A DNA stretch of 64,000 bases. It comes from a bacterium (lineage in GTDB: Bacteria > Patescibacteriota > CPR2 > UBA1875 > JAJYID01). Within the stretch, counting starts at the first letter, position 1, and every line of letters starts with the position of its first letter. The translations under genes were made by a program, and so were the position numbers. Positions 12,441 to 62,708 of this stretch are shown one piece after another. The notes below the pieces were generated by a model. The model did not search any database. It was not told the origin of the DNA and saw only the letters and a program-made list of their open reading frames with translations. The stretch spans positions 18,742 through 82,741 of the forward strand of contig JAJYJC010000001.1 of the NCBI GenBank assembly GCA_021796415.1, written 5' to 3'.

Positions 12441-12452
12441 CAATGGAAAAAA

Positions 12453-15367: not shown

Positions 15368-15369
15368 GA

Positions 15370-22696: not shown

Positions 22697-22719
22697 GATT
22701 CTGGTCAAGCCAGAATGAC
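22697..22719. repeat. Hairpin repeat (type B)
   Basis: gattctggtcaagccagaatgac. Confidence 0.7.
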
Positions 22720-24013: not shown

Positions 24014-24044
24014 GGAGATCGTCAATCCACTACTTTTTTCGCTC

Positions 24045-24400
24045 GTCATTCCCGCGCAGGCGGGAATCCAGCCTAAATAATTTCATTATACAAATCTCTC
24101 CATTCAGGATTAGATTTTTCGATTAGTCGCAGCTTCCATCTTCTTTCCCATTTCTTAAGCCGTTTTTCTCGTTTTATTGCTGCTTCAGCTGTCTGATGTT
24201 CTTCGAAGTAAACTAAAAGGTGCGTTTGATATTTATTACTGAATCCCCCAACAAGATCATTTTTGTGTTGGTAAACTCTTTTAATTAGCTCAGAGGTAAC
24301 CCCAATATAAAGAGTCCCATTTTTCTTACAGGCCAAAATATAAACCCAAAATTTTTTCATATCTCACAACTTTCTGGATTCCCGCTTGCGCGGGAATGAC
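24045..24400 (-). mobile_element. GIY-YIG nuclease gene flanked by inverted hairpin repeats (copy 3)
   Basis: gtcattcccgcgcaggcgggaatcc sits at 24045-24069 and ggattcccgcttgcgcgggaatgac at 24376-24400. Confidence 0.7.
24073..24360 (-). CDS. Stand-alone GIY-YIG nuclease, copy 3 (divergent paralog)
   Basis: Contains FWVYILACKKNGTLYIGVT...RVYQHK. Confidence 0.85.
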   Translation of the reverse strand: MKKFWVYILACKKNGTLYIGVTSELIKRVYQHKNDLVGGFSNKYQTHLLVYFEEHQTAEAAIKREKRLKKWERRWKLRLIEKSNPEWRDLYNEII

Positions 24401-24433
24401 GCTATCTCCCCATTCAAGTTCAGAATGACAGAA

Positions 24434-26509: not shown

Positions 26510-27210
26510 AACGAAATTTTAGCATCTTTATAACTATGAAATCTAATCCTTATCAGGTCTCGAACAAAAAAGATGCCTTCTCGGAAGTTAAAATAGCTTA
26601 ATCTTTTCGGGTAATGCGATACGTCTAAAGTGACGGTTTGAATCTTGGATTGCGCTTGTTTGGCAAGAAAAAGCATCTCAACATCACTGGCAAATCCGGA
26701 TACGAAGGTTTTGGGGAATATTTTTCCAGCCGCCACTCTTGAAAAACCCTTGAGTCCGGCTTGCGTATCGTGGAACGGAAGCAAAAAGACAACTCTGATA
26801 AAAATGTGAACTATTTTTCGGGCAAATTTGTATGCAAGCGATCTGCTATATGCATTTTTCTCCGCTATAACCACATCCAAGGTCGGATCTTTTTCAAAGG
26901 CCAAGATAATATCTTTGATTCCGCTTGTGCCAAATGGCAGATCGGCATCGGTAAATATGACAATATCACCTTTGGCGGCAAGCACCCCCCGCTTTATAGA
27001 GTAGCCTTTGCCTCTATTTACCGTATTTCTTATGTATTTGGCTTGCTTGAATTTTCTTCCTGCACTCTTTGTTCCATCTGTGCTTGCATCGTCAACTAAA
27101 ATAACTTCGGCATCTGGAAAATTTTCCATAACGCTTTTCAGATTCTTTACTATGCTGCCTTCTTCGTTGTATGCAGGTATGATTATTGAAATCTTCATTT
27201 TCCCAGCCAT
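26482..27210 (-). CDS. Family 2 glycosyltransferase (dolichyl/polyprenyl-phosphate sugar synthase-like)
   Basis: Contains ISIIIPAYNEEGSI...VILVDDASTDGT...DADL. Confidence 0.75.
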   Translation of the reverse strand: MAGKMKISIIIPAYNEEGSIVKNLKSVMENFPDAEVILVDDASTDGTKSAGRKFKQAKYIRNTVNRGKGYSIKRGVLAAKGDIVIFTDADLPFGTSGIKDIILAFEKDPTLDVVIAEKNAYSRSLAYKFARKIVHIFIRVVFLLPFHDTQAGLKGFSRVAAGKIFPKTFVSGFASDVEMLFLAKQAQSKIQTVTLDVSHYPKRLSYFNFREGIFFVRDLIRIRFHSYKDAKISLCEQNSEEV

Positions 27211-28034
27211 ATTAGAAATTCCTTATTTCCTTTCGCGCCCGTTATCGGCGATTCGGTCATGCCCTTTACTTTAAATCCTTGCTCGCTTGCAAAGGCTTTA
27301 ATGCCAGTTACTACTTCTTGCCTTAAATTTTCATCTTTTATAACACCTTTGGTTTTGTCGGCTTCTTTCTTGCCAACTTCGAATTGGGGCTTGATCAGTA
27401 AAACACATTCGGTCTTGTAATCGGCAATTTTTTTGATCTGGGGCATGATCTTTTTGAGTGATATAAATGAAACATCGCAAAGGAAATAATCTACCTGATC
27501 AACCGTCATTCTGGCTTGGCCAGAATCTGTGTTTTGATCATGGTTTTTTGATCCTGGACAAGCCAGAGCCTGTTCTGGTCGTAATCCAGAAATAACCCGC
27601 TTAGAAAAATCTTGCCAAGAATCAATATTACGAAAATTAGTCCGCTCCATCACAACGACGAGCGGATTTTCCCTCAGCTTTTGGTCAAGCTGCCCCCAAC
27701 CGACATCTATAGCATAAACTTTTCGAGCGCCTTTTTGTATGGCAAAATCCACAAAACCGCCCGTTGAAGCGCCAATATCACAAATTACCTTGTCTTTAAA
27801 GCACAACTGGAAATCTTCGTAAGCCTTTTGAATCTTTAAAGCACCGCGGGAAACATAGGGCAATTTTCCCTTTATCTCAATGTCAGAAGCCTCGTCAATC
27901 GTTGTGCCGGCTTTATCAATCCTCTGCCCGCTGGCAAAAACCTGCCCGCTCATAAGCAGGGCTTGGGCTTTGGTTCTCGAGTCAGCCAAACCCCTTTCAA
28001 CTAATAATATGTCGATTCGCTTTTTCATTTTCAA
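27195..28034 (-). CDS. tlyA: TlyA-family rRNA 2'-O-methyltransferase carrying an in-frame hairpin-repeat insertion
   Basis: Has an S4 domain (RIDILLVERGLADSRTKA) and an FtsJ-like MTase (VICDIGASTGGF). The insert ...SGQARMTV... is encoded by the repeat at 27505-27571. Confidence 0.85.
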   Translation of the reverse strand: MKMKKRIDILLVERGLADSRTKAQALLMSGQVFASGQRIDKAGTTIDEASDIEIKGKLPYVSRGALKIQKAYEDFQLCFKDKVICDIGASTGGFVDFAIQKGARKVYAIDVGWGQLDQKLRENPLVVVMERTNFRNIDSWQDFSKRVISGLRPEQALACPGSKNHDQNTDSGQARMTVDQVDYFLCDVSFISLKKIMPQIKKIADYKTECVLLIKPQFEVGKKEADKTKGVIKDENLRQEVVTGIKAFASEQGFKVKGMTESPITGAKGNKEFLIWLGK

Positions 28035-28036
28035 TT

Positions 28037-28439
28037 GTCATTCTGAACTTGATTCAGAATCCAGGGATTTCTCATACAAACCATCCCAATTTGGATTTAC
28101 GCCTTCAATCAAATCTAGCTTCCACTTACATTTCCAATTCTTAATTTGTTTTTCTCTTTTAATGGCCTCTCCTACGCTATTCGTTACTTCAAAATAAACT
28201 AGCTTATGAACCGGGTATTTACCAGTAAATGATTCTGATTTAATGTTTTTGTGTTCGTAAATTCTTTTTATTAAATCATTTGTAGCACCAGTATAAATAG
28301 TTCCGTTTCTTTGATTTGCTGTCATGCAAACATAATATGATTTAATTGCTTTTTATTTCTGGATTCCGGATCCACCTGCGCTAAAGCTACGGAGGGACAG
28401 GTCAACTGATTATATATTTATTGTATAGTCCGGAATGAC
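28037..28439 (-). mobile_element. GIY-YIG nuclease unit flanked by hairpin repeats (copy 4, decaying)
   Basis: gtcattctgaacttgattcagaatcc (28037-28061) encodes the C-terminus and the stop codon. A composite hairpin lies at 28361-28439. Confidence 0.6.
28038..28325 (-). CDS. Stand-alone GIY-YIG nuclease, copy 4 (ancestral start codon apparently mutated to ATT)
   Basis: The in-frame upstream sequence reads IKSYYVCMTANQRNGTIYTG, compared with MKSYYVYIMASDRNGTLYTG in copy 1. The C-terminal LDSESSSE* is repeat-encoded. Confidence 0.65.
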   Translation of the reverse strand: MTANQRNGTIYTGATNDLIKRIYEHKNIKSESFTGKYPVHKLVYFEVTNSVGEAIKREKQIKNWKCKWKLDLIEGVNPNWDGLYEKSLDSESSSE

Positions 28440-28508: not shown

Positions 28509-29069
28509 CTATTTAGCCCGTTCGACATATGATCCGCCACGGGTGTCAATGCGGATCCTGTCTCCCTTTTTTATGAAAAGAGGCACGTTCACTTTGAGTC
28601 CCGTTTCGATTTTAACAACCTTCGTTGCTCCGGTTGCCGAATCTCCCTTCAGACCCTTTTCAGCTTCGGTTACGGTAAAGTCCATTTTTATAGGAAGATC
28701 GATAGCAATAGCTTTCCCTTCAAACAGTTGCAGCTGGTAAGCCTCTCCTTCAATCAAATACTTAGACGCTTCACCGACAAAATCTCCGCTAAGCGCAACT
28801 TGCTCGTAAGTTGCCTGGTCCATAAAATTGAAATTGTCGCCGTCTCTATATAAGAATTGGGCTTTTTTTCTCTCTATCGACACTGGCGGGAATTTCTCCC
28901 CGCCGCGGAATGTCTTTGAAATAATGACCCCGGTCATTAAATTTTTTATCTTTGTCTTTAAGACTGCTCCGCCGCGGCCCATTTTGGAATGCTGATATTC
29001 GAGCACGACATATGGCTCTCCTTCAAATTCAAAGACTATGCCTGTTTTTAGATCTGTTATTCCGTACAT
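28509..29069 (-). CDS. efp: Elongation factor P
   Basis: Contains GIVFEFEGEPYVVLEYQHSKMGRGGAVLKTKIKNLMTG. Confidence 0.9.
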   Translation of the reverse strand: MYGITDLKTGIVFEFEGEPYVVLEYQHSKMGRGGAVLKTKIKNLMTGVIISKTFRGGEKFPPVSIERKKAQFLYRDGDNFNFMDQATYEQVALSGDFVGEASKYLIEGEAYQLQLFEGKAIAIDLPIKMDFTVTEAEKGLKGDSATGATKVVKIETGLKVNVPLFIKKGDRIRIDTRGGSYVERAK

Positions 29070-29159
29070 AATTGGTTATCGGGTAATTAGGTTAATAGGT
29101 AAGTCGGTAATAATTTTATCCCATGAACCGACAAACCGAACAACCCATAAACCCATCTC

Positions 29160-29402
29160 CTATCTATTCACAAAAGGAAGCAAAGCTATAATTCTTGCGC
29201 GTTTTATTTCAAGAGCAACCTTGCGCTGATGTTTAACGCAGTTGCCTGTTCTCTTTCGCGACTCTATCTTGCCATAGCCGGAAATGAACTTCTGAAGCCC
29301 TTTGACATCTTTGTAGTCAATTTTCAAATCCTTGTCTATGCAAAATCTGCACCCTTTTCTGGGCACAAATGTGGTTTGTTTGTCTCTAGAACGGTATGTC
29401 AT
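29160..29402 (-). CDS. rpsR: 30S ribosomal protein S18
   Basis: Contains CRFC...IDYKD...GKI..RKRTG.C.KHQRK...IKRARIIALLPF. Confidence 0.85.
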   Translation of the reverse strand: MTYRSRDKQTTFVPRKGCRFCIDKDLKIDYKDVKGLQKFISGYGKIESRKRTGNCVKHQRKVALEIKRARIIALLPFVNR

Positions 29403-29859
29403 CGATATTTATCTCCTCTTCTTCCGCTTCAACTTTAGCGGATTCTTTGTCATCTTTTTTCGCTTTTTTGCTATCGGCTTTTTTCACCGCCGGTTTTTCA
29501 TCATCTATCGGGAAGTCGCCGCCATCACGCCTCGAATCAACAAAGGCTATGTCCTGGGCAACAATCTCGGTTTTTTGCCTTTTTGCGCCGTCTTGTCCTT
29601 CCCAGCTTCTGGTTTGGAGGCGGCCCATCACGTGAACCTTTCTGCCTTTTGTTAAATACTGGCTGCAGAGTTCGGCCAGCTTGCCCCATACAACAACTTC
29701 GTGGAATTCCACTTCGTCTTTTTTCTCGCCGTTTGCATCTTTCCAAGAACGATTAGTGGCTACCCCAAATGATGTTACCGGTTGGCCGTTCGGTGTGTAT
29801 CTAAGCTCCGGATCGCGCGTTAGATTACCCATTATGATTGCCAGGTTTACATTTTGCAT
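29386..29859 (-). CDS. ssb: Single-stranded DNA-binding protein
   Basis: Has an OB-fold N-terminus (NLAIIMGNLTRDPELRYTPNG) and an acidic tail ending in DDIPF. Confidence 0.9.
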   Translation of the reverse strand: MQNVNLAIIMGNLTRDPELRYTPNGQPVTSFGVATNRSWKDANGEKKDEVEFHEVVVWGKLAELCSQYLTKGRKVHVMGRLQTRSWEGQDGAKRQKTEIVAQDIAFVDSRRDGGDFPIDDEKPAVKKADSKKAKKDDKESAKVEAEEEEINIDDIPF

Positions 29860-29962
29860 GGCTTTCTCCTTTTGTCCTAGTAAACTAGGAACTTAGTTAA
29901 TTGGTTGATTAGGTTATTTTTATATCCCGCCCGAATTCCTAATTACCTAGGTACCTATGCAC

Positions 29963-30436
29963 CTAATTTCCTTCTCCCTCTCCTATTATTTCTTTTAACT
30001 TTTCGTCGAGTTCTTTTTGTCTTTCTTTTTCTTCCTTTGCCGTTTCGGTTTTTGTTTTCTTTTGTGAAATTTTTGGTGCCTCGTCTTTCTTCGCCGGTGA
30101 CTCTTTTTTCATTGTTGTTTTCTTCTTCGTGGTTTCAGCCTTGACTTCTCGGCCTTCCACAACCAATACTATCATTTGACGGATAATCTCTTCTGAAAGC
30201 CGTAATAGCCTTTCAACTTCATTGATAGCGGCTGGGTCGATTTCTACAACCATATATTCATAAATCCCATATGTATTGTGCTTTATCTCATATGCTAGCT
30301 TTTTCTTCCCCCAGCTTTCTTCACTAAGAATTTTGCCTTTCCTGCCTTCAACGTCTTTTTTGACCTTTTCTGTAATTTTGGCGGTACTACCTTCAAGATC
30401 TGGGTGTATAATGTAGACGATTTCGTATTTTTTCAT
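29963..30436 (-). CDS. rpsF: 30S ribosomal protein S6
   Basis: Starts MKKYEIVYIIHPDL. This is the classic rpsF-ssb-rpsR arrangement. Confidence 0.85.
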   Translation of the reverse strand: MKKYEIVYIIHPDLEGSTAKITEKVKKDVEGRKGKILSEESWGKKKLAYEIKHNTYGIYEYMVVEIDPAAINEVERLLRLSEEIIRQMIVLVVEGREVKAETTKKKTTMKKESPAKKDEAPKISQKKTKTETAKEEKERQKELDEKLKEIIGEGEGN

Positions 30437-30557
30437 TAAAAAAATTCCTTTCCACGGACCCTTATAGGGGCTTCTGGCTTTTAGCCGAAGCAAAAACGAA
30501 AATTATTTATTATTATTTAACTGTAGATATTATATAAAATTTAAGAATATAAGTCAA

Positions 30558-31085
30558 ATGCAAAAACTGTTCTCTGAGTTTAATAAAACGCTCGTTATCA
30601 GCCGGCAGGAAAAAGCCGCCATTGGTTTTTTGAAAAATGTGATACTCAACCCGGAAAACGGTAAAGCTGTGGGCATATCTTTCAAAACTCCCGATAGAGA
30701 CAATATGACATTGGTAGCAAGCACTTCGGCCATAGTGGGCACCGGGCTTAACTTTATAATGATCGACAAGATAGATTCAGTAGGTTCGCCCGATGAGATA
30801 ATAAGGGTGAAAGAGATTTTGGACAAGGGCATTGAACTGATTGATTCCAAAGTCATAGATGAAGATGGCAGAAATATGGGCAGAGTCAATAATTATTCCA
30901 TAAACCTTAAGACCTTAAGACTGCGCAGGTTGTATGTTTTAAGCTCAAGCCTTATAAAGATCATTGCGAAGGAAATCATTATCCCCGAAGAAGACATTAT
31001 AAAGATAGAGAAGAATAAAATTACCGTTAGAAGCGGCAAGATTAAGGCAGGTAAAAAAATCCCCGCTCTGGCGGAAGAGCCTTAA
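30558..31085 (+). CDS. Hypothetical protein (tentatively two PRC-barrel-like modules)
   Basis: Repeated GKAVG/GRNMGRV motifs, each followed by a hydrophobic beta stretch. The similarity is weak. Confidence 0.3.
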   Translation: MQKLFSEFNKTLVISRQEKAAIGFLKNVILNPENGKAVGISFKTPDRDNMTLVASTSAIVGTGLNFIMIDKIDSVGSPDEIIRVKEILDKGIELIDSKVIDEDGRNMGRVNNYSINLKTLRLRRLYVLSSSLIKIIAKEIIIPEEDIIKIEKNKITVRSGKIKAGKKIPALAEEP

Positions 31086-31152
31086 CCTAAAAACACCTCG
31101 ATTTAAGCGCAAAGAAATTATTGGATAGTATATTTTACTTTAGAATATTATA

Positions 31153-32172
31153 ATGAGTTCAATGGAGGACCATAGCACTAAACAAATAAACTTGGCGCTG
31201 TTGGGCAACTTTTTAGTGGCTGTTTTAAAATTTCTGGTTGCTGCCGTTTCCGGGTCTGCCGTAATGTTTTCGGAAGGATTGCATTCTGTTGCCGACACAG
31301 CAAATGAGGTATTTCTCCTTTTTGGTCTGAAAATGTCAGGCCGGCCGGCAAACAAGGAGCATCAGTTCGGTTTTGGCAAAGAAAGATTTTTTTGGAGCCT
31401 GATCGCTGCCTTTGGTATCTTGATAGTCGGCTGCGTGTTGTCTATTCAAAAGGGAATGAATGCGATACTTCACCCGGAGGAAATAAAGCTTATTCAGTGG
31501 CCGCTCCTTGTGATTATTATCTCAATCATCATCGAAGGATACACACTTTTTGTCACTTATCGTTTCCTGCACAAAACGAAAGGCAAGGCAAATCTCTTGA
31601 AATTTCTCGACGATTCATCTGAAACGGCTGTCATTACCGTTTTCTTCGAGGATACGGCGGCTGTTACCGGATTGATTATCGCGGCATGCGGCATCTTGCT
31701 CTCATACTTCTTCAGAACCTCGCTCTATGACGGCATCGCATCGGTTGCGATAGGCGTCCTTCTGGGGCTGGTTGCCATTTTTTTAGCCAATAAGAACAAG
31801 GATCTCCTAACCGATCAGGCGCATCTAACGATTAATAAAAGAGCAGGTGAAATTCTGATGAGACATCCTGCCGTGGAAAAATTCCATGATCTTCGCACTA
31901 TAATTTTCGGACCAAAACACGTTGTGGTGGTTTCAGATGTCGAGTTTAAGGAAGAATTTATATATGATAATATCGAGAATGATCCGGGGAAAGACCGAAA
32001 GGAGTATACGGAAGAAGTCATTAAAACAATCGGAGATCTCACTGACCAGCTGGAAGCACAGATAAGGAATGCCTGCCCGGAAGTCAAAGAAATTTACCTC
32101 GAAGTTGAGCAGGGTAAGGCTTTGACACTAGGTAATAATATCTCAACATTGAATCAAAAGAATACAACCTAA
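31153..32172 (+). CDS. Cation diffusion facilitator (CDF) family metal efflux transporter
   Basis: Has six TM helices (LHSVADTANEVFLLFGL) and a C-terminal cytoplasmic domain. Confidence 0.8.
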   Translation: MSSMEDHSTKQINLALLGNFLVAVLKFLVAAVSGSAVMFSEGLHSVADTANEVFLLFGLKMSGRPANKEHQFGFGKERFFWSLIAAFGILIVGCVLSIQKGMNAILHPEEIKLIQWPLLVIIISIIIEGYTLFVTYRFLHKTKGKANLLKFLDDSSETAVITVFFEDTAAVTGLIIAACGILLSYFFRTSLYDGIASVAIGVLLGLVAIFLANKNKDLLTDQAHLTINKRAGEILMRHPAVEKFHDLRTIIFGPKHVVVVSDVEFKEEFIYDNIENDPGKDRKEYTEEVIKTIGDLTDQLEAQIRNACPEVKEIYLEVEQGKALTLGNNISTLNQKNTT

Positions 32173-32420
32173 AAAGCACTTGACAGTGGATAGTATAAGG
32201 AGTATCATTTGTTGCGTCGTCTTAAAAGAGAGGATGTTGATGTTGACAATAGTTTTGTGGGTAATCGCCCTTGGCTTTACCTACGGTGTAATAGCACGAT
32301 AAAAAAGTTCCCCGAAAGGGAATTTTTTTATTTCCGGAGCAAAAAATCTTAAGTCTCTTCAATAAAACTAAAGTAGTTTGTTTAATATATCTAAAAGTTC
32401 GAACCTGCTATGGTCCATCA

Positions 32421-33023
32421 TTAAATATTCATTTCAATGACAACCTTTTTAAAAATATCGTACGAAAAACCTCTCCGGGATAGGTTCTCATAGAGCTTTT
32501 GTTTTTTTGTTTGTGAATCTTCTTTTTCGTATTTTTTCAGAACCTTCTCAGCAGCTTTTTTTGCATTCTCCAACTCTATTGCATCATCCTTTTCCTGAAT
32601 TACTTGTTCAATAGTCTCCTTATCAATGCCTTTTTTTTGAAGCTCAAGTCGCACTAATCTTTTGCCTTTCTTGCTATCTTCGGCAAAATGTTGCGCAAAT
32701 TCCTTGTCATTTAAAAGGCCCGATTTTTCTAACCGGCAAATAACCTTATCAATTATCGGTTTTTCAAAGTTTTTACTCAGCTTTTGTCTCATTTCACCCG
32801 AACTATTCGCCCGGTATGAAAGTATCAGCAGGCTTCTATCAAATGCTTTCGACTCCGGGTCCTTTTCTTTCAGCTCTTGAATTTGTTTCTCTGATAATTT
32901 CTCATTTTCCTGTAATCCAGAGTCTTCAAGTGTTCTTCTTGCCAGCGAAAATCTATAAACGCCATCGAGATAGATGTTGCATCTATCTCGCTTGGACTGT
33001 TTTTCTATTTTGGTGATTTTCAT
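32421..33023 (-). CDS. recX: RecA regulator RecX
   Basis: Has a helical-repeat architecture and lies downstream of recA. The ORF's N-terminal extension (RFWPSQNDAT) is hairpin-repeat-encoded, so the likely start is at 33023. Confidence 0.65.
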   Translation of the reverse strand: MKITKIEKQSKRDRCNIYLDGVYRFSLARRTLEDSGLQENEKLSEKQIQELKEKDPESKAFDRSLLILSYRANSSGEMRQKLSKNFEKPIIDKVICRLEKSGLLNDKEFAQHFAEDSKKGKRLVRLELQKKGIDKETIEQVIQEKDDAIELENAKKAAEKVLKKYEKEDSQTKKQKLYENLSRRGFSYDIFKKVVIEMNI

Positions 33024-33042
33024 TCTAAGCTCCCGAGTGGCG

Positions 33043-33385
33043 TCATTCTGGCTTGGCCAGAATCTATCTAAGAATTTCTCCATACAAATCCTTAAATTCA
33101 GGATTTTCCTTTCTGATTAAATCCAATTTGTCTCTTCTGTTCATGTCTTTAATTTGTTTCTCTCGAACAATAGCTTTTATAGCTGTATCAAATACCTCAA
33201 AATAAACTAATTTATGAATATGATACCTTTTCGTAAATCCTTCAACCAGCTCATTTTTATGCTGGTAAACCCTTTTTCTGAGGTCATTAGCTATACCGGC
33301 GTAGAGCGTTGGTCTTTCGTTTGTCATAATATATGTGAAGTATTGTTTATTCATAGGCTTTGATTCTGGCCAAGCCAGAATGACG
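33043..33385 (-). mobile_element. GIY-YIG nuclease unit flanked by type-B hairpins (copy 5), inserted between recA and recX
   Basis: gtcattctggcttggccagaatc sits at 33043-33065 and gattctggccaagccagaatgac at 33363-33385. Confidence 0.7.
33064..33354 (-). CDS. Stand-alone GIY-YIG nuclease, copy 5 (divergent paralog)
   Basis: Contains YFTYIMTNERPTLYAGIAN...RVYQHK. Confidence 0.85.
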   Translation of the reverse strand: MNKQYFTYIMTNERPTLYAGIANDLRKRVYQHKNELVEGFTKRYHIHKLVYFEVFDTAIKAIVREKQIKDMNRRDKLDLIRKENPEFKDLYGEILR

Positions 33386-33409
33386 AGAAGGAAGGATGCT
33401 TAGGTCTAG

Positions 33410-34414
33410 TTACTTCTTTACCGGAAAGTATTTGTCTCGTAAAACTTTTTCAAGTTCTGAGAATACTTTTTCATTATCTTTCAAGAACTGCTTGGCCGCT
33501 TCTCTGCCTTGCCCGATTTTCTTGTCCTTATATTCATACCAAGCTCCGCTTTTTTTAATAAGGTCGTCCTTTACCGCCAAGTCTAGGAGGTCGCCGTATT
33601 TTGATATACCTTCGTTATACATCACATCAAATTCCGCCGATCTAAATGGCGGCGCAACCTTATTTTTTACTACTTTTACCATCACGTGGTTTCCGATAAC
33701 GGTATCTCCGTCTTTGATCTGCTCTTTTCTGCGGATATCCATTCTGACCGAGGAGTAGAATTTTAGGGCATTCCCGCCGGTTGTTACCTCTGGATTTCCA
33801 AACATGACACCTATTTTCATTCTCAACTGATTAATGAAAACTAGAGTGGTATTTGACTTTGATGTCGCTCCTGTTAGTTTTCTTAGAGCCTGTGACATAA
33901 GCCGAGCCTGAAGGCCGAGGTGAGAATCCCCCATTTCCCCTTCTATTTCATTTTTTGGCACAAGAGCCGCTACAGAATCTACAACAACCACATCAACAGC
34001 ATTCGAGCGGACTAAGGTTTCTGTAATTTCGAGAGCCTGTTCCGCCGTATCAGGCTGAGAAACAAGCAACTTATCAATGTTTACCCCAATGTTTTTGGCA
34101 TACTCGGTATCCAGAGCATGTTCTGCGTCAATGAAAGCGGCCACTCCGCCCTTCCTTTGGGCCTCACTTACGATGTGGTATGCAAGCGTTGTTTTTCCGC
34201 TGGATTCAGGACCATATATTTCGATAACCCTTCCTCGCGGTACACCGCCGACACCGAGCGCAATATCTAGTGACAGCGACCCGGTCGGTATAACCTGCAC
34301 ATTTTGAGTCCCGGCATCACCGAGCTTCATTATAGAACCCTTACCAAACTGCTTTTCAATCTGATCTACGGCCATCTGAATGGCTTGCGTTTTCCCTGAT
34401 TTTTCGTCTGTCAT
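33410..34414 (-). CDS. recA: Recombinase RecA
   Basis: Contains [20 protein letters not shown] (Walker A) and the L1/L2 loops. Confidence 0.95.
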
Positions 34415-34478
34415 TTCTTCCTCCTTTTGTAACTAATTACTAATATTAAACGAATCTACAAATATTACGAATTGTATA

Positions 34479-34880
34479 CTAATCGCTCAAGTTAAGAATT
34501 CTTTTAAATCTTACTTCATCAGGACCAAAATTTACCAAGATTCCAAGTTTTAATCCTGTGGTTCTCAAATATTCACTTATCTGTTTTACACTAGCCCTAT
34601 TAAGTCTATTTCCTGCTTTCAGCTCTATAATTATTTTGTCTTCTATTAAGAAGTCAAGGAAGCGGCTACCAACTTTTTCGCCCTTAAAGTAAATCGGGCA
34701 ATGAATCTGTCTCGTATAGTTTAAAGCTGCTTCCTTAAAGGCCAATTCCAAAGAATCTTCATAGGATTTTTCTCGCAGCCCGGGCCCCAATTCATTATGC
34801 ACTTTGAACATCAATCCTATTAGCTTGTAGGAAAGTTCAGGATAAGCTATTTCTTTTCTAATAGTTGTATTTATAAACAT
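34479..34880 (-). CDS. GxxExxY family protein (PD-(D/E)XK-like)
   Basis: Contains ...EYLRTTGLKLGILVNFG..., a family often associated with 23S rRNA intervening sequences. Confidence 0.55.
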   Translation of the reverse strand: MFINTTIRKEIAYPELSYKLIGLMFKVHNELGPGLREKSYEDSLELAFKEAALNYTRQIHCPIYFKGEKVGSRFLDFLIEDKIIIELKAGNRLNRASVKQISEYLRTTGLKLGILVNFGPDEVRFKRILNLSD

Positions 34881-34936
34881 TGATTTGTTTTTGTAATATT
34901 TGTAGATTCGTTTGGCTTTGTAATTCGTTACAAGAT

Positions 34937-35329
34937 TTATTTTGCGAATTTTAAATTAAATAAGTATTGTTCTTTGACCTTATTTCTTTTCTCAACCTTG
35001 ATCAATCCTTCGAGCAATCTGATCAAAAGGTCCCCTTGGGTTTTTATCATTTTGTAGCTGGCTAAGGTTATCCTATTGTATTCCTTAAACAGCCTGGCAT
35101 AAAACAAGACATTTTCACAAAGCTTTATCGCTTTTCTGTAACACTCAATTCTTTCTTTTTCGTTATAGCATTCATAACTCATGGAAACCAGTGATGTTAT
35201 CTCGACCGAATCCTCTCTCATTGCTTCCAGAAAATTACTGTATTTTTTAATCTTTTTTGTTTTTGATTCCACCAGCGCAAAAAATTCGTTGGCTTTTTTG
35301 ATGATTTGCACTTCGATATACTCTCTCAT
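34937..35329 (-). CDS. Hypothetical protein
   Basis: An ORF predicted to be helical, with no recognisable motif. Confidence 0.3.
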   Translation of the reverse strand: MREYIEVQIIKKANEFFALVESKTKKIKKYSNFLEAMREDSVEITSLVSMSYECYNEKERIECYRKAIKLCENVLFYARLFKEYNRITLASYKMIKTQGDLLIRLLEGLIKVEKRNKVKEQYLFNLKFAK

Positions 35330-35345
35330 GGCTCGCTCCCTTGCG

Positions 35346-35981
35346 TTACTCTTTAAAATTTTTAATAACCCCTATCACCTTTCCCTGGATCATAAATGTG
35401 CCAGGTTCCGGAATAATAGTCTTGTGATCTTTGTTCGAGCTCATCGGCTCAAACATCGCCTTGCCCTTATCGGTTCGCAGTTTTTTGACTGTTGCTTCCG
35501 TCCCAATCAAAACAACTACCTTGTCACCGTTCTCAGCATGGCTTGTCTTTCGAAAAACAATATAGTCGCCATCATCGATACCGGCAAGGTTCATGGAATC
35601 GCCTTTTGCCGTCAGCATAAAGACGTCTTGCGCTCTTTTGACCAGTTTGGTTGAAAGGGGAATCCAATCCTCAATCATTTCCTCGGCATATATCGGCATA
35701 CCGCAGGCAACCCGGCCGACAAGAGGGACATTGACCACGCCTTCATTTTCGGCAACCGGCTTTCGCCCATCTAATATGACAATTCCTCTGGCTTGGTTCT
35801 CCAATCTTCGAATTTGCCCTTTGCTTTCAAGCGCTCTTAAGTGGGAAACAACTCCCATCGGAGAAGAACAGCCGATCTTTTCCTGCAATTCCCGCACTGT
35901 CGGCGCACCGCCGGTTTTATCGACGGATTCCTTAATCCAGCTAAGGACTTTCTTTTGTTTGTCAGTTAATTCTTTTGCCAT
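35346..35981 (-). CDS. lexA: SOS repressor LexA
   Basis: Has an N-terminal wHTH and a C-terminal S24 peptidase domain (GDSM...K). Confidence 0.9.
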   Translation of the reverse strand: MAKELTDKQKKVLSWIKESVDKTGGAPTVRELQEKIGCSSPMGVVSHLRALESKGQIRRLENQARGIVILDGRKPVAENEGVVNVPLVGRVACGMPIYAEEMIEDWIPLSTKLVKRAQDVFMLTAKGDSMNLAGIDDGDYIVFRKTSHAENGDKVVVLIGTEATVKKLRTDKGKAMFEPMSSNKDHKTIIPEPGTFMIQGKVIGVIKNFKE

Positions 35982-37957: not shown

Positions 37958-38106
37958 TTTGTTGTAATTTTCTCCTTTTTACCCCGAGTATTTGGGGTCT
38001 GCCCCGAACAATCACCGAGGACTTTGAGTTCTTTAATTAATATTAGTTTTTAATAATTTACCTTGTCATTCTGAAACATGACTTAAGAATCTATATAATA
38101 AATGCT

Positions 38107-38153
38107 GGATTCCGGATCCCCGCCTGCCGGACGGGCAGGAAGTCCGGAATGAC
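38107..38153. repeat. Hairpin repeat (long unit)
   Basis: ggattccggatccccgcctgccggacgggcaggaagtccggaatgac. Confidence 0.7.
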
Positions 38154-38162: not shown

Positions 38163-38921
38163 TCAAATTAATTTTTGTTGTTTAGGTTGATTGTCATTAT
38201 TATTTAAATTTTCTTCTTCAATTCTCTTCAGAATCTTGGGGATTTTATTGAAATCTGCTTGCAGTGTTTTCTTCATGCTTCCGTTATAAAGCGCGACTGC
38301 GGGATGATATAGTGCCAAAAATACTTGTTTTCGGCCACCCTTTGCCTGCCCCACACTTGAAATAGTGCGTGGGTCATTCTCATCCCCCCCTTTGTCATCC
38401 CCGCCTTCTCTTTTGTCATTCCCGCGCAGGCGGGAATCCAGTCCTTCAAAATGCAATTCCTTGCGAAATGCATTGCCATGAGCCTTTGAAATCTGTAATG
38501 ACGGGAAAAATCTGTTCATGGCATGCCGGCCTAGAAATACGATTAACTTTGGATCAATAAGTTCAATTTGCTTTTTCAAATACGGCCAGCACATTTGCGC
38601 CTCTTCCGGCAATGGATCGCGGTTGTTCGGCGGCCTGTGCTTCAAAACATTTGCTATGTAGACATCTTTTCGCTGCCAGCCTAAGCTTTGAATCAATTCA
38701 GTTAGAAGCTGTCCCGCTCGGCCGACAAATGGTTCGCCTTGCTGGTCTTCATCCTTGCCCGGCGCCTCGCCGATAAACATGACGTCAGCCGTTTCGCTGC
38801 CGACTCCCGGCACATCCTTGGTTTTTGTCTTAAACAGCGAACATCGCTCGCAAGCAGAAATAAGCTTATTCAAAGCCGAAATACTATCAGCACCTAAAAT
38901 ATCCTCGTCAGTTATTTTCAT
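38163..38921 (-). CDS. Family 4 uracil-DNA glycosylase carrying an in-frame hairpin-repeat insertion
   Basis: Contains [32 protein letters not shown]. The insert [19 protein letters not shown] is encoded by repeats at 38373-38439. Confidence 0.8.
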
Positions 38922-40039: not shown

Positions 40040-40124
40040 ATAAGCAACATTATATCATAGTTTACAGTTCACTGTAAACTGTAAACTTTTCAAATAAAAA
40101 ATATACTTTGTCTGTCATTCCGAG

Positions 40125-40167
40125 CGACTTCGCGGAACGACGAGTCGAGGAATCCCTTGAAAGATCA
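40125..40167. repeat. Hairpin repeat at the left border of the high-GC island
   Basis: gtcattccgagcgacttcgcggaacgacgagtcgaggaatccc. Confidence 0.7.
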
Positions 40168-43099: not shown

Positions 43100-43222
43100 G
43101 ATTCTTCGTTACACTCAGAATGACACGTCTAGTTTGTTTCTTATTATTCAATTGTCAAATTGCGTTTTCTGGAACCCGGATTCTGGTCAAGCAACGTCAA
43201 ACGTTGTTATGCCAGAATGACG
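43100..43222. repeat. Two hairpin repeats at the right border of the high-GC island
   Basis: gattcttcgttacactcagaatgac sits at 43100-43124. ggattctggtcaagcaacgtcaaacgttgttatgccagaatgac sits at 43177-43222. Confidence 0.65.
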
Positions 43223-47678: not shown

Positions 47679-48287
47679 TTATTTTAGGATTTTGAGCTCG
47701 GCTTTTAGGGTTTTTAGGTCAAAAACGGCAAAACTGGCGCGGCCGAACTGGCCGGCTACTTCTCCGGGATTAATCAATTGGGTTTTGCCAATCTGTTCCT
47801 CCCAAGGAGTGTGAGTGTGGCCGTAGAATACGGTGTCGTATCGTTCGGACTCGGCTAATTCTTTAGCCTTTCGATTGTTATGGACATAGGCAATTTTACG
47901 CTTTTCAAGCACGACTTCGCCGAAATCCGGGGCAAAAACCACATTCTCCGGAAAGAGTCCACCACCCCTGTCATTCCCGCCCTCCTTTGTCATTCCGAGC
48001 GACTTCGCGGAGCAACAAGCCGAGGAATCCCTTTCGCCTTTATCAGTACCATCTGGGCAGGCGGATAAACTCCGGCGGGAATCCAGTCCATTTTTCAATT
48101 CAAAATCTAAGTTCCCCAAGTTTAAGTAAAGAATTTCAAATGACTTTGCCACTTCGCTCACTGTGTCTAAATCGCCAATATCCCCGCAGCAAAAGCCAAT
48201 TTTAACTCTTTCAGCTTTAATAATCTCCGCCGCTTCCCGCCAGCGCTCTAAGTTGTCATGCACATCGCTAAAAACCGCTATTTTCAT
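47679..48287 (-). CDS. YfcE-like metallophosphoesterase carrying an in-frame composite hairpin-repeat insertion
   Basis: Contains MKIAVFSDVHDN...CCGDIGD...GHTHTP. A roughly 45-aa insert LDSRRSLSA...GMTKEGGNDRGGG is encoded by repeats at 47970-48089. Confidence 0.75.
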   Translation of the reverse strand: MKIAVFSDVHDNLERWREAAEIIKAERVKIGFCCGDIGDLDTVSEVAKSFEILYLNLGNLDFELKNGLDSRRSLSACPDGTDKGERDSSACCSAKSLGMTKEGGNDRGGGLFPENVVFAPDFGEVVLEKRKIAYVHNNRKAKELAESERYDTVFYGHTHTPWEEQIGKTQLINPGEVAGQFGRASFAVFDLKTLKAELKILK

Positions 48288-48310: not shown

Positions 48311-48376
48311 GTCATTCTGAACTCGATTCAGAATCTATTAAATAAGGCCTGGATTCCGGATCAAGTCCGGAATGAC
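48311..48376. repeat. Composite hairpin repeat (two units)
   Basis: gtcattctgaactcgattcagaatc followed by ggattccggatcaagtccggaatgac. Confidence 0.7.
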
Positions 48377-50585: not shown

Positions 50586-50658
50586 GGAGCTAATAGCATG
50601 CTATTTACTCATCTTACCCGACCAAAATTCCGTTTTAATTTATTAATGTTCTCTTGCT

Positions 50659-50884
50659 GTCATTTCGACTCCGCCTTCGGAACGGATAAACTCCGTGGAG
50701 AAATCCATTTTTCCTTTAGCAACTTGCCAACTTATAATCTTAGTAACTCTTTCAAGGGATTCTTCGGCTCCGCTCAGAATGACAATATTTTTATTTTATT
50801 AATGTTCTTTTTTTGTCACTCGGATCCTTCTTGTCCGTCATCCTGGCTTGGCCAGGATCTATTTCTACAGGATTCTGGACAAGC
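50659..50884. repeat. Hairpin-repeat cluster in the rpsO-pnp intergenic region
   Basis: gtcatttcgactccgccttcgg...cgctcagaatgac runs to 50783. gtcatcctggcttggccaggatc and ggattctggacaagccagaatgac cover 50806-50884. Confidence 0.65.
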
Positions 50885-50935
50885 CAGAATGACTCTCAAT
50901 ACTATATACTCAATACCCAATACTGAAACTTGGAG

Positions 50936-51366: not shown

Positions 51367-51525
51367 GTCATCCCGAGCTCGCCTTCGCAAAGCTACGAAG
51401 CGGAGAAACTCCGCGATAGCGGAGTCGAAGGATCCCTTAAAATATTTAAATAAAGTTCAAGAGATTCCTCCGCTCGCAACTCACGTGGTGTCGGCCCGCC
51501 TGCCGGACAGACAGGTCGGAATGAC
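51367..51525. repeat. Hairpin repeats (a long hairpin-repeat unit plus a cccgcctgccggacagacaggtcggaatgac unit)
   Basis: gtcatcccgagctcgccttcgcaaagctacgaagcggagaaactccgcgatagcggagtcgaaggatccc sits at 51367-51436. A second unit lies at 51495-51525. Confidence 0.65.
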
Positions 51526-52412: not shown

Positions 52413-52415
52413 AGA

Positions 52416-52476
52416 GTCATTCCGGTTTGTCCGGATTCAAAAAAGATCAATACGATTCTGGTCAAGCCGGAATGAC
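52416..52476. repeat. Composite hairpin repeat
   Basis: gtcattccggtttgtccggattc followed by gattctggtcaagccggaatgac. Confidence 0.7.
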
Positions 52477-52682
52477 AACCTATTAGACGGGCGAGCTAAA
52501 ATGATGAAATTGGTATAGTATCCGTTTGTCCGTTATTCTGTTATTCCGTTCCTTAGTTCTTTATTTTTCTGTCTACAAGCTGTGCATAAAAACGTATCCT
52601 AGCTCAGCTTGTTCTCAAAAAGTTTTATTTTGAGCACAAATTTGACAAATTTTTCAGATTATTGTTTTTCCACAAGACTGCT

Positions 52683-52770
52683 GTCATTCCGGACTTGATC
52701 CGGAATCCAGATAATTTTATATAGATTCTGAATCCCCGCCTGCCGGACGGGCAGGAAGTTCAGAATGACA
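52683..52770. repeat. Composite hairpin repeat (same two-unit architecture as 12355-12440)
   Basis: gtcattccggacttgatccggaatcc followed by gattctgaatccccgcctgccggacgggcaggaagttcagaatgac. Confidence 0.7.
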
Positions 52771-52813
52771 AAACATTTGTTTCACGTGAAACAACGCCTA
52801 ACGTTGTGAAACC

Positions 52814-55391: not shown

Positions 55392-56561
55392 CTAAGTTAG
55401 TTTCAGATTTGGGTTAGCTACTAGGCTTCTTGGCTCGATAAAGCCAAATTCCTTCTGTTTGTAGTATGCGGCGGCACCGATCATGGCCGCATTATCGGTG
55501 CAATAATTTAAATCGGGCATGTGAAACTCAACCTTCAATTCCTTGCATAATTTTTCTAGCCCTGAGCGCAAAAGGGGATTGGCCGCCACGCCTCCGGACA
55601 ATATGAATGATTTTGGTTTGTACTGGGCTATCGCTCTCTGGTTGTTTTGAACTAGGGTATCGACCAAAGTTTTCTGAAAAGAGGCGGCAATATCCGCTTT
55701 TGTTTTGCTCTCAATCCCACACCCGGTGTGGGATTGGCATTGTTTTACAATATTCAAAACAGACGTTTTGAGGCCGGAGAGTGAAAAGTCGAGGCTGGGT
55801 TTGGGGTAAACGAGAAAGCCATCTTTGCCGCGTTTTGGTTCGGGAGTGAGATCTATAACAGGAAATTCATATTTATCAGCGTTACCATTCTCTGCTAATT
55901 TGCTAATATTCGGCCCGCCGGGGTAGGGGAGGGCAAGCAGTGCTGCAACCTTGTCGAAAGCTTCGCCGGCAGCATCATCGCGGGTTGCTCCCACAATTTG
56001 AAAATTGTAATGCCTTTTCATGTAAATTAGCATTGTATGCCCACCCGAAACTACTAGGGCCACGAGAGGAAATTGCGGGACAGTATTGTGTATTGGGTAT
56101 TGGGTATTGAGGTTGGGATTCTTCATTGCCTCAGAATGACTTTTTTTATTTTGAATTTGATTGGAAATTGCTGATTGGAAATTGGAAATTTTGCCAACAA
56201 TCCAATTCGCATACACGTGTCCTTCGAGATGATTCACGGCAATTAGCGGCTTGTCCTTTAAAATTGCAAGTGTCCTTGCCGTTTCGATCCCGGCAATCAA
56301 ACTTCCAACAAGTCCCGGTCCTTGGGTTACGGCGATAGCGTCGATCTGGGGCCAATCCAGTTTTGCCGCATTTAAAGCCTCCTTGATCGTTGGAATAATG
56401 GCCTGTACATGAACCCGCGCCGCTACCTCCGGCACCACACCGCCATACTTGGCATGAAGATCAACTTGCGAAGCGACCACATTCGATAAAACATTCCGAC
56501 CGTCACTCACAACTGCAGCCGCTGTCTCGTCACAGCTCGATTCTATAGCTAAAATATTCAT
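55392..56561 (-). CDS. tsaD: tRNA N6-adenosine threonylcarbamoyltransferase TsaD carrying an in-frame hairpin-repeat insertion
   Basis: Contains MNILAIESSCDETAAAVV...NHLEGHV. A roughly 40-aa insert (..SHSEAMKNPNLNT..) is encoded by the repeat at 56116-56140. Confidence 0.9.
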   Translation of the reverse strand: MNILAIESSCDETAAAVVSDGRNVLSNVVASQVDLHAKYGGVVPEVAARVHVQAIIPTIKEALNAAKLDWPQIDAIAVTQGPGLVGSLIAGIETARTLAILKDKPLIAVNHLEGHVYANWIVGKISNFQSAISNQIQNKKSHSEAMKNPNLNTQYPIHNTVPQFPLVALVVSGGHTMLIYMKRHYNFQIVGATRDDAAGEAFDKVAALLALPYPGGPNISKLAENGNADKYEFPVIDLTPEPKRGKDGFLVYPKPSLDFSLSGLKTSVLNIVKQCQSHTGCGIESKTKADIAASFQKTLVDTLVQNNQRAIAQYKPKSFILSGGVAANPLLRSGLEKLCKELKVEFHMPDLNYCTDNAAMIGAAAYYKQKEFGFIEPRSLVANPNLKLT

Positions 56562-56617: not shown

Positions 56618-57694
56618 ATGGGTCCTATGGAAATGCTGAGTATTCTGGCAAAGAAGTCAAATAACCTTTTTCAGTCCGGCGTTTGGGCTGATTTTCAGGC
56701 AGATCTGAAGCGCAAATCATTTTTAATCAAAAGTGATCATGTGGAAGCCTTGGTCATCAAATATCCTTTGATTGGGCGAAATTTATTTTCAAAAATAGAT
56801 TCCCGCCGGAGTTTATCCGCCCGAAGCTCTGCGAAGGAGGACGGGAATGACAAAGGAAGGGGAGATAAGTATTATTTTTATTCCCCTCGAGGACCGATTG
56901 CTGATTCAAAAGTGAAGCTGAAGGACTTGAAAGTATTCTTCAGAAAAGTCGAGTCTCTTGCCAAAGAAGAGAATGCTGTATTTTACCGAATAGAGCCTTA
57001 TTCTTTAGGTCAGGTTGATATTTATAAGTTCGGTTTTAGAAAAATCGCAAAACACGCACCGCTATCAGCACAATCCTCACCCGAAAATACTCTCGTTTTA
57101 GATATCACAAAACCTGAAGAAAAAATTCTAGCCGAAATGAAGCCGAAGTGGAGATACAACATCAACTTGGCGTCAAGAAAGGACGTCAAAGTGCGCCAGG
57201 GGAAAAGTCTAAATGATATCAAGATTTTCTATAACCTCACTTTGGAAATGGAAAAAAGGGGAGGGTACAAGGGGCATGAGTTTGAATACTACAAAAAGAT
57301 GTTTGAGGTTTTAAGCAGCAAAAATGTGCTGAAACTTTATATCGCAGAATACGAAGGTGAGCCTTTGGCGGCGATTTTGGTTTCTTTCTACGGCCAAGTC
57401 GCAACATACTTGCACGGCGCCTCGGGGAATGAAAAGAGGGAACTGATGCCAACTTACGCGCTTCAGTGGGCGGCTATCCAAGACGCAAAGAAAAAGGGCT
57501 GCAAGATTTATGATTTTTGGGGCATAGCGCCAGATGGCGCAAAAAATCATTCGTGGGCAGGCGTCACCAGATTTAAAAAGGGTTTTGGTGGAGAGGCCCT
57601 TCATTTTAGCGGCGCATACGATATGGCATTTGACAAAAATTATTACCGCCTGCTTTCTGCGGCAAACAGAGTTAGAAAGGTTTTGAAAAGATAA
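56618..57694 (+). CDS. FemAB-family peptidoglycan aminoacyltransferase-like protein carrying an in-frame hairpin-repeat insertion
   Basis: Has a FemAB/GNAT-fold C-terminal half (LYIAEYEGEPLAAILVSFYGQVATYLHGAS...WAGVTRFKKGFGG). The insert IDSRRSLSARSSAKEDGNDK is encoded by the repeat at 56798-56850. Confidence 0.6.
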   Translation: MGPMEMLSILAKKSNNLFQSGVWADFQADLKRKSFLIKSDHVEALVIKYPLIGRNLFSKIDSRRSLSARSSAKEDGNDKGRGDKYYFYSPRGPIADSKVKLKDLKVFFRKVESLAKEENAVFYRIEPYSLGQVDIYKFGFRKIAKHAPLSAQSSPENTLVLDITKPEEKILAEMKPKWRYNINLASRKDVKVRQGKSLNDIKIFYNLTLEMEKRGGYKGHEFEYYKKMFEVLSSKNVLKLYIAEYEGEPLAAILVSFYGQVATYLHGASGNEKRELMPTYALQWAAIQDAKKKGCKIYDFWGIAPDGAKNHSWAGVTRFKKGFGGEALHFSGAYDMAFDKNYYRLLSAANRVRKVLKR

Positions 57695-61828: not shown

Positions 61829-61851
61829 GATTCTGGACAAGCCAGAATGAC
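61829..61851. repeat. Hairpin repeat (type B)
   Basis: gattctggacaagccagaatgac. Confidence 0.7.
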
Positions 61852-61867
61852 GAATTATAATTGAATT

Positions 61868-62137
61868 ATGGAATTAAACGATATAAGAGACGGGATCGAC
61901 AAAATTGATAATCAAATTTTCGATTTAATTGTCGAGCGCGTCGATCTTGCAAGGGAAGTCGTAAAGGCCAAAAGCGCGCTTGGAAAACCGATTTATGACG
62001 CCGAGAGGGAAAAGGTTGTGATCGGTAAGCAAGTCGAAAAAGCAGAAAAGCTAGGGCTGCCAACAGAGTTTGTGGCTGACATTTATAAAGCATTGATTCG
62101 CGGCTGCACCAAGGTAGAAGAAGAACTAGGGGACTAA
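61868..62137 (+). CDS. Chorismate mutase (AroQ class), small stand-alone
   Basis: Contains IRDGIDKIDNQIFDLIVERVDLAREVVKAK, with the CM_2 helix pattern. Confidence 0.55.
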   Translation: MELNDIRDGIDKIDNQIFDLIVERVDLAREVVKAKSALGKPIYDAEREKVVIGKQVEKAEKLGLPTEFVADIYKALIRGCTKVEEELGD

Positions 62138-62147
62138 ACTGCCTATC

Positions 62148-62219
62148 TGTCATTCTGGGGACGAAGGACTCCAGAATCTAAAGCGCATATATCCTTGATT
62201 CTGGACAAGCCAGAATGAC
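62148..62219. repeat. Composite hairpin repeat
   Basis: gtcattctggggacgaaggactccagaatc followed by gattctggacaagccagaatgac. Confidence 0.7.
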
Positions 62220-62315
62220 AATTATGAAAATATTGACAAAGATTTTACGCTTTGTTATATTGATTTAGCACTCGTGGGGGTAAGAGTGCTAATTTGAACT
62301 AAAATATTATTAAAT

Positions 62316-62368
62316 GTCATCCTGAGTGAAACGAAGGATCCAGAGATTCTTCCTTGTTTCAGAATGAC
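62316..62368. repeat. Hairpin repeat immediately upstream of groES
   Basis: gtcatcctgagtgaaacgaaggatccagagattcttccttgtttcagaatgac. Confidence 0.7.
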
Positions 62369-62388
62369 GAATTTGAGGAGAATATTAT

Positions 62389-62652
62389 ATGGCAAAACTA
62401 AAACCATTGGGCTACAAAATTATTGTGGAACGCCAAGCAGCAAGCGAGAAGACCGCTGGCGGAATTGTCATACCCGACAATGCAAAAGAGAAGCCGGAGC
62501 AGGGCAAAGTTATCGCAGTAGGCAAAGACGTCGAGGAAGTAAAAGTTGGCGATACTATTATTTTGGGAAAATTCGCCGCCACAGAAGTCAAAATTAACGG
62601 AAATGAATATTTAATTGTAAGGGAAAAAGAAGTTTTAGCAATTATTTCATAA
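62389..62652 (+). CDS. groES: Co-chaperonin GroES
   Basis: Contains KPLGYKIIVERQAASEKTAGGIVIPDNAKEKPEQGKVIAVG. Confidence 0.9.
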   Translation: MAKLKPLGYKIIVERQAASEKTAGGIVIPDNAKEKPEQGKVIAVGKDVEEVKVGDTIILGKFAATEVKINGNEYLIVREKEVLAIIS

Positions 62653-62685
62653 TTTCAAATCCCAATTAATCAATCCCAAAAAAAT

Positions 62686-62708
62686 GATTCTGGCCAAGCC
62701 AGAATGAC
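62686..62708. repeat. Hairpin repeat between groES and groEL
   Basis: gattctggccaagccagaatgac. Confidence 0.7.

Follow-up and report, generated by a model that had tools for sequence, protein, structure and literature searches.

Positions 52416-52770 lie in the spacer (52413-52813) that separates a TPR gene from a gene for a class-I aminoacyl-tRNA synthetase, and hold two doublets, that is four copies of a short hairpin-forming repeat. The whole stretch of DNA that was analysed, referred to below as the window, is 64 kb long and comes from a bacterium whose nearest named YchF and RecA proteins belong to candidate division WS5 and to Patescibacteria. About 38-40 well-formed hairpins were counted in the window by the hairpin rule. 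The coordinates of the elements are given in Table 1.

A repeat unit has the layout (C/T)GTC - ATTCnnnn - loop - nnnnGAAT - CCA(G). The stem comprises 8 bp and begins with ATTC, and both the GTC head and the CCA-like tail are unpaired. The base preceding GTC is T in 26 of 40 units and C in 11 of 40. The loop usually spans 3-5 nt and is longer in some copies, several of which carry loop inserts of 20-57 nt. Four main stem types occur: type 1, CCCGC-GCAG-GCGGG (~13 copies); type 2, CTGGC-TTG-GCCAG (~13 copies, with a 3-nt loop); type 3, CCGGA-CTTGA-TCCGG; and type 4, CTGAA-CTTGA-TTCAG. Further classes comprise units with GAG...CGA loops and several long-core variants. Units are used in both orientations and are mostly arranged as inverted pairs with outward heads, 11-25 nt apart; the tally for the window is ~14 short doublets and five gene-containing units versus ~12 singles. 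When folded as single-stranded DNA, type-1 homodimers are able to form one 24-bp hairpin and type-3/type-4 heterodimers form two separate small hairpins.

The head word GTCATTC occurs 55 times on the two strands of the window, compared with 7.8 +/- 2.8 times in dinucleotide shuffles, none of which reached 55. About seven occurrences have no hairpin and fall in ordinary coding sequence, approximately the number expected by chance. The resulting spacing, one head word every 1.2 kb, bears out the density of more than one element per 2 kb proposed in a sequence-only reading of this DNA. The accompanying statement that most intergenic regions contain an element was overstated: on a rough gene map, the head word is present in 20 of the 45 spacers with a length of 20 nt or more, and in 16 of the 28 that reach 100 nt. 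Nor are the outer and inner words fixed in every copy, as had been claimed; the enrichment of the head word holds, but GTCATCC...GGATC and GTCATTT...GAAAT versions exist. The core sequences quoted in that reading were all found in the window. Among 44 cores picked by the fixed words only (GTCATTC to the first GAATC), 31 contain at least three further contiguous pairs, where ~2 are expected at a probability of (6/16)^3 per core. The self-complementarity ascribed to every core was overstated for the long CGAGCGACTTCGCGG... core, which is only weakly self-complementary.

The variation of the cores preserves the stems. The set examined, picked by head and tail only, comprised 108 distinct 27-mers drawn from the window together with 80 unrelated loci. 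Of its stem cells, 90.9% are paired; shuffling lowers this to 76.7%, and sliding the partner column to 22-50%. Cells changed on both sides number 102 versus 22.4 in shuffles, and double-sided changes are present at seven of the eight stem pairs. This compensatory variation upholds the earlier proposal of selection on secondary structure. The elements extend beyond this contig region: ten head words are present in 9.3 kb of a related genus (L083), although only two were found in the relative L084.

Table 1 Repeat units and SRM-ssn-SRM units of the 64-kb window, with the genes that carry in-frame copies.
Feature	Position	Strand	Remarks
Doublet, two decayed SRM units	52416-52476		heads outward, 15-nt spacer; one 61-nt hairpin, -14.4 kcal/mol, z -4.5
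Heterodimer doublet	52683-52769		two separate hairpins, -18.4 kcal/mol, z -4.6 (ssDNA folding vs shuffles)
Type-3 unit of this doublet	52683-52710	+	ATTCCGGA-CTTGA-TCCGGAAT
Type-4 unit of this doublet	52722-52769	-	ATTCTGAA...TTCAGAAT; 21-nt GC-rich module in loop
SRM-ssn-SRM unit 1	6237-6640	-	404 bp; ORF 6264-6551, 95 aa; type-1 (NTS-type) hairpins 6237-6259, 6618-6640
SRM-ssn-SRM unit 2	10616-11019	-	ORF 10643-10930
SRM-ssn-SRM unit 3	24045-24429	-	unit 24045-24400, ORF 24073-24360; type-1 hairpins; adjoining type-4 half unit to 24429
SRM-ssn-SRM unit 4	28037-28439	-	ORF 28038-28325; type-4 hairpin 28037-28060, type-3 with 57-nt loop 28363-28439
SRM-ssn-SRM unit 5	33042-33384	-	ORF 33064-33354, 96 aa; type-2 hairpins ATTCTGGC-TTG-GCCAGAAT; between recA and recX
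Composite doublet, type-1 unit and long GC-rich unit	1907-2028
Single type-1 stem, 28-nt loop	4364-4410	-
Half unit and full type-1 unit	7167-7210	-	in frame in prepilin peptidase gene (6665-7612), peptide VIPAQAGIQ
Type-3/type-4 (with module) doublet	12355-12441		right head decayed
Doublet, type-2-like units	18058-18135
Doublet, left decayed, right type 2	22657-22719
Type-1 homodimer doublet, 66 nt	23492-23557		in frame in ychF (22847-24013); -32.7 kcal/mol, z -12
Old decayed type-2 doublet	27505-27590		in frame in ftsJ/tlyA (27195-28028), peptide SGQARMT
Type-4 (decayed)/type-3 (with module) doublet	38065-38153
Two partial heads and full type-1 unit	38373-38437	+	in frame in uracil-DNA glycosylase gene (38163-38921)
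Single unit, long CGAGCGACTTCGCGG... core	40114-40153	+
Two single units	43100-43221	-	GAG-loop type 43100-43124; type 2 with long loop 43180-43221
Half unit and long-core unit	47970-48030	+	in frame in Metallophos_2 phosphoesterase gene (47679-48287)
Type-4/type-3 heterodimer doublet	48311-48376		no loop inserts
Two composite doublets	50656-50893		rpsO-pnp spacer; 50656-50783 and 50815-50893
Composite, two long-core units	51367-51525
GAG-loop unit	56116-56140	-	in frame in tsaD (55392-56561)
Type-1 stem, long loop	56799-56851	-	in frame in FemAB-family gene (56618-57694)
Cluster	61830-62708		single 61830-61851; doublets 62149-62219, 62316-62368 (GAG-loop units); single 62687-62708

The element class and its enzyme are already known, under the names CGTC REPs, dRS3/NTS and SRMs, and the combined system was published in 2025. 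The system is described from Neisseria meningitidis and other bacteria. Across phyla, the NTS motif CGTCATTCCCGCGMAVGCGGGAATCYRG, or one of the degenerate versions of it termed SRMs, is found at the flanks of ssnA, a GIY-YIG gene encoding 94 aa; the SsnA protein, a member of the Ssn family (cd10448), binds the hairpin and cuts only single-stranded DNA, upstream of the motif, without cutting the reverse strand, double-stranded DNA or RNA, and Ssn homologues each have their own specificity (Chenal 2025, PMC11893778). CGTC REPs are defined by an unpaired CGTC or TGTC head, an 8-9-bp stem starting with AT, a 4-5-nt loop and a CCA tail; they fall into families CGTC-1 to CGTC-4, of which CGTC-1 is the Neisseria dRS3, and form inverted dimers, and no dedicated enzyme was found for them (Di Nocera 2013, PMC3733652). 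New here are the host lineage, three putative pairs of hairpin class and ssn paralogue, the evidence for mobility and the frequent in-frame insertions.

The published SRM pattern matches ten sites in the window versus 0.13 expected from 100 shuffles. Two of these are exact copies of the NTS consensus (24044-24071 and 24374-24401), and the remaining eight have T in place of C at the first base and no other difference. The pattern detects type-1 units only and misses the CTGGC, CCGGA, CTGAA and GAG-loop types. Because most stem types found here are missed, surveys that use the pattern undercount, and for the same reason recognition by Ssn is extrapolated for three of the four main stem types. 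The units have the anatomy of CGTC REPs, including the C/TGTC head, AT-start stem and CCA tail, with the exception of type 2, with its 3-nt loop, and the variants with 20-57-nt loop inserts. Inverted dimers predominate, heterodimers are frequent and intragenic copies occur, as among CGTC REPs; long NIME-like arrays were not found in the 64-kb window. Unlike CGTC REPs as first described, the window units bracket a GIY-YIG gene, as in the system of Chenal 2025.

Five minus-strand ORFs of 95-96 aa with a GIY-YIG domain (PF01541, E 1e-12 to 1e-16) are present in the window and are referred to as ssn-1 to ssn-5. The domain spans residues 3-77 and is the only one found. All five genes lie between two SRMs with outward heads, in modules of 343-404 bp. 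Ssn-1 matches the N. gonorrhoeae chromosome at a single place (tblastn E = 1e-26), where it is 55% identical over 89 aa to a 94-aa NTS-flanked ORF (BLASTP 2e-37, below the E < 1e-10 adopted for Ssn homology by Chenal 2025); the identity of the five window proteins to this ORF ranges from 43 to 56%. The gonococcal ORF is presumably the ssnA orthologue, given its length, its NTS flanks and the lack of a second match in the record. Membership in the Ssn/SRM system is established because the sequences agree on both the DNA side and the protein side: the same 28-nt motif, a 94-96-aa single-domain GIY-YIG protein, a repeat on both sides of the gene, and abundant, mostly intergenic repeats. The two settings differ in the host, Patescibacteria/WS5-like here and Pseudomonadota there; in gene number, five ssn genes in 64 kb versus one matching place in the N. 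gonorrhoeae record; in the additional stem types that escape the published pattern; and in the recent duplication and empty sites seen here. The gonococcal NTS copies (579-606, 1000-1027 and 1075-1102 of L087, NZ_CP119140.1) have their CGTC heads toward the gene, whereas in the window and at most loci of other phyla the heads point away. PLSDB files two 2.17-Mb N. gonorrhoeae chromosomes (NZ_CP119140.1 and NZ_CP119142.1) as plasmids.

The flanking hairpins differ among the five genes: ssn-1, ssn-2 and ssn-3 have type 1, ssn-5 has type 2, and ssn-4 lies between a type-4 and a type-3 hairpin, an arrangement repeated in four gene-less doublets (at 12355, 38065, 48311 and 52683, the last in the spacer described above). 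Three hairpin classes (CCCGC, CTGGC and the CTGAA/CCGGA heterodimer) thus appear to be matched each to its own ssn paralogue. Nonetheless, ssn-1 and ssn-3 have type 1 in common despite being only 59% identical, and clustering of 44 Ssn proteins gave no clean correlation between protein similarity and the loop class of the flanking hairpins. The ssn-4 gene (28038-28352) has ATT at the expected ATG, Cys at the position of the GIY Tyr and a one-residue deletion, and its frame continues through the downstream hairpin to stop at the TGA of GAATGAC; it is probably decayed and looks inactive. An ORF beside SRM units at 61866-62153 equals the ssn genes in size (95 aa) but is probably not a gene, as it has no GIY-YIG match and is only 18% identical to Ssn-1. 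NCBIfam, PADLOC and PHROGs contain no informative model for the Ssn protein, and the PDB yielded only distant UPF0213 structures. A search of the whole window against Rfam gave no match at gathering thresholds, and tRNA and tmRNA scans of the window found none.

The association of hairpins with the gene is not confined to the window. Outward SRMs on both sides of ssn were observed at 61 of 80 GTDB loci from many phyla and at 53 of 67 metagenome loci. In control windows taken from the GTDB loci at distances above 1.2 kb from the gene, a unit is present in 3-5% of cases. The best Ssn match in the GTDB scan is 73% identical, and no copy of ssn-1 above 85% identity was found in the metagenome scan. 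These counts bear on the idea that the repeats are classical REPs or REPINs moved by a Y1 (HUH) RAYT or IS200/IS605 transposase encoded elsewhere, with the GIY-YIG genes as passengers. The short palindromes, inverted doublets and high copy number do look REP-like, and the window covers only 64 kb of the genome. However, bracketing of ssn at ~77% of 147 loci in many phyla is unexpected for passengers, the head is (C/T)GTC rather than GTAG, CGTC REPs were found to flank no transposase gene (PMC3733652), and none of ~60 ORFs scanned matched Y1_Tnp, which makes this origin very unlikely. The resemblance to the REPIN/RAYT systems of Pseudomonas and enterobacteria lies in the organization, with a single-copy-type gene between inverted REP hairpins, dispersed gene-less doublets and coexisting pairs of hairpin and enzyme; a hydrolytic GIY-YIG nuclease and a GTC head are found here, as opposed to an HUH Y1 transposase and a GTAG head.

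Of the two functions put forward in the sequence-only reading, a substrate for a structure-specific nuclease and terminating or transcript-stabilising hairpins, the first is supported by cognate GIY-YIG Ssn genes lying between hairpins in the window and by homologues that bind the hairpin and cut single-stranded DNA (PMC11893778); that reading had overlooked both the genes and the repeat family. The second, an RNA-level role as intrinsic terminators or 3' stabilisers of the kind proposed for classical REPs, is unsupported and very unlikely. Many copies are intergenic, their stable stems would be expected in transcripts, and two or three units are terminator-like (e.g., 62687-62705 and 50840-50858). 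However, terminator-like sites in the window are at the chance level (23 versus 22.2 expected) and few overlap the repeats, TTTT occurs within 12 nt of only 9 of 36 units, and the combination of a GC-rich stem and a direct T-run oriented with the upstream gene is not characteristic of the units. Copies run in either orientation, form outward-facing pairs and are found in frame within at least seven genes; the 48311-48376 doublet has a canonical terminator downstream of it, distinct from the hairpins; neither the unpaired GTC head nor the CCA tail, both conserved, plays a part in termination; and RNA is not bound by SsnA (PMC11893778). Promoter-like sites in the window number 48 versus 33 expected.

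A gene for a Xer-like tyrosine recombinase (2032-3006) starts 4 nt past an SRM head. This integrase-family ORF directly adjoins the 1907-2028 composite, and dRS3 is a known phage integration target (PMC1797815), such that the recombinase might be considered the partner of the repeats. This is very unlikely, as one integrase is set against ~48 element copies, no prophage or cargo other than ssn lies between copies, the compensatory stems point to recognition of structure rather than of a duplex core site, and the direct biochemical partner of the motif is Ssn (PMC11893778).

Comparison of copies and of orthologous sites reveals both copy and presence/absence polymorphism. A single base separates units 1 and 2 over their 404 bp, and their flanks are unrelated; the matching stretch opens one base ahead of the left head and closes five bases past the right head. 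The unit 2 locus was also found in other assemblies (L001, L002). The unit 4 site is empty in the relative L084, where the ftsJ-efp gap is 5 nt. The unit 5 site is empty in L170, in which recA and recX are 56 nt apart, and in L171, in which they overlap, and the unit is present in L172 and L173. Several ychF orthologues lack the doublet, and in others the loop is occupied by a different insert; the doublet is lineage-specific, and the FtsJ insert is old and common to related genera. L086 was rejected as an empty site, belonging to the same strain-level lineage. With respect to the classical IS/MITE signature, units 1 and 2 have the inverted ends but not the direct duplication, no target-site duplication being found at their flanks. 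The near-identical copies with sharp boundaries, together with the empty orthologous sites, provide concrete genomic evidence pointing to movement of the SRM-ssn-SRM unit, for which the original paper had a hypothesis only (Chenal 2025, PMC11893778).

The manner of spread can be considered from the enzyme and the arrangement of its sites. IS200/IS605 elements also depend on an enzyme that recognises imperfect ssDNA hairpins and cleaves at a fixed offset; there, however, a covalent Y1 transposase cuts both ends on the same strand, whereas the unrelated enzyme here has one cleavable site per strand. GIY-YIG enzymes cleave DNA hydrolytically, with no covalent intermediate, and to our knowledge no strand-transfer chemistry has been described for GIY-YIG Ssn. 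Because the enzyme is hydrolytic and only one SRM per strand is cleavable, IS200/IS605-like cut-and-paste is unlikely, and break-induced copying seems the more likely route.

Taken together, the hairpins are SRMs, which Ssn probably binds as folded units in single-stranded DNA and cuts on the 5' side, and the SRM-ssn-SRM units and gene-less doublets probably constitute one mobile or homing repeat family. A single-stranded unit would fold into its hairpin, and Ssn would bind hairpin and head and cleave that strand a few nucleotides to the 5' side of the head. The stem would be free to drift as long as pairing holds, with head, first four pairs and tail fixed; if recognition is structural, stems may therefore change by compensatory steps, such that the termini stay fixed and the cores covary. 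The three hairpin classes would each travel with their own ssn paralogue, and the gene-less doublets, which resemble a short form of the SRM-ssn-SRM unit, may behave comparably to REPIN/RAYT, spreading through intergenic DNA and, in frame, into tolerant protein loops. By analogy with SsnA, the window proteins presumably cut their flanking hairpins. Ssn may likewise drive the spread and have a role for the host, e.g., in controlling imported ssDNA. More tentatively, and with the balance somewhat against it, the SRM-ssn-SRM units could be autonomous mobile or homing elements that are active at present and owe their movement to a hydrolytic GIY-YIG ssDNA nuclease, which would make them the non-HUH equivalent of RAYT/REPIN. 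Several orthogonal pairs of nuclease and hairpin would then coexist in one small candidate-phyla genome, seeding gene-less doublets and in-frame insertions in essential genes; the units would also be neighbours, and perhaps effectors, of the DNA-uptake and RecA machinery.

In-frame hairpin units occur in at least seven housekeeping genes, to which they add short peptides. Rickettsia palindromic elements likewise insert in frame into genes and add short peptides to surface loops, but, compared by description only, they are longer (~100-150 bp); RPE-4 and RPE-6 have been equated with CGTC REPs (PMC3733652).

The findings add a Patescibacteria/WS5-like lineage, in which one genome has several paralogues, to the known range of the Ssn/SRM system, and offer candidate cognate pairs of nuclease and hairpin with different stems at a time when Ssn enzymes are under development as site-specific ssDNA cutters. 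In the window, the ssn units occur amid genes for DNA uptake and ssDNA handling (348-17874 and 28509-35981), including ComEC, a type IV pilus cluster (pilins, PilD, PilC, PilT, PilB and PilM), SSB, RecX, RecA and LexA; the pilus cluster contains ssn-1 and ssn-2, and recA and recX flank ssn-5. SsnA is a modulator of transformation in Neisseria. The proximity of ssn to uptake genes may be a coincidence, given one repeat per 1.2 kb.

A second mini-element lies nearby at 34448-34913. It contains a PDDEXK_3 (PF13366) ORF (34479-34880) between 24-nt inverted repeats (34448-34471 and 34890-34913) that are 96% complementary, and is missing at that spot in L170 and L171. In L168 and L169, the spacer between recA and recX (L168, 3506-4023) contains a different PDDEXK_3 gene, likewise with inverted repeats of its own, exactly at the position of the ssn-5 unit.

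Three further sequence features accompany the units. The rpsO-pnp spacer contains a 30-nt direct repeat, 87% identical (50633-50662 and 50789-50818), directly upstream of two SRM heads, which suggests a longer conserved left end of a subfamily or a local duplication. A recurrent composite consists of a half unit GTCATTCCCGC, which stops exactly where the 5' stem arm ends, 7-10 pyrimidine-rich bases and a full unit (7167-7210, 38394-38437 and 47970-48030; also L086 2292-2332 and L088 ~1135-1175); an unrelated metagenome contig also has a CCTCCTTT version upstream of an ssn gene. The composite may have arisen as a repair footprint or by nested insertion, or may represent an extended site. The 21-nt GC-rich palindromic module CCTGCCCGTCCGGCAGGCGGG, whose core 12-mer CCGGCAGGCGGG was not found in 86 other loci compared, is present at 12407-12427, 38119-38139 and 52735-52755, with variants at 1985-2005 and 51495-51515, and occupies an identical position (CTT^GA) and orientation in the loops of two different stem types.
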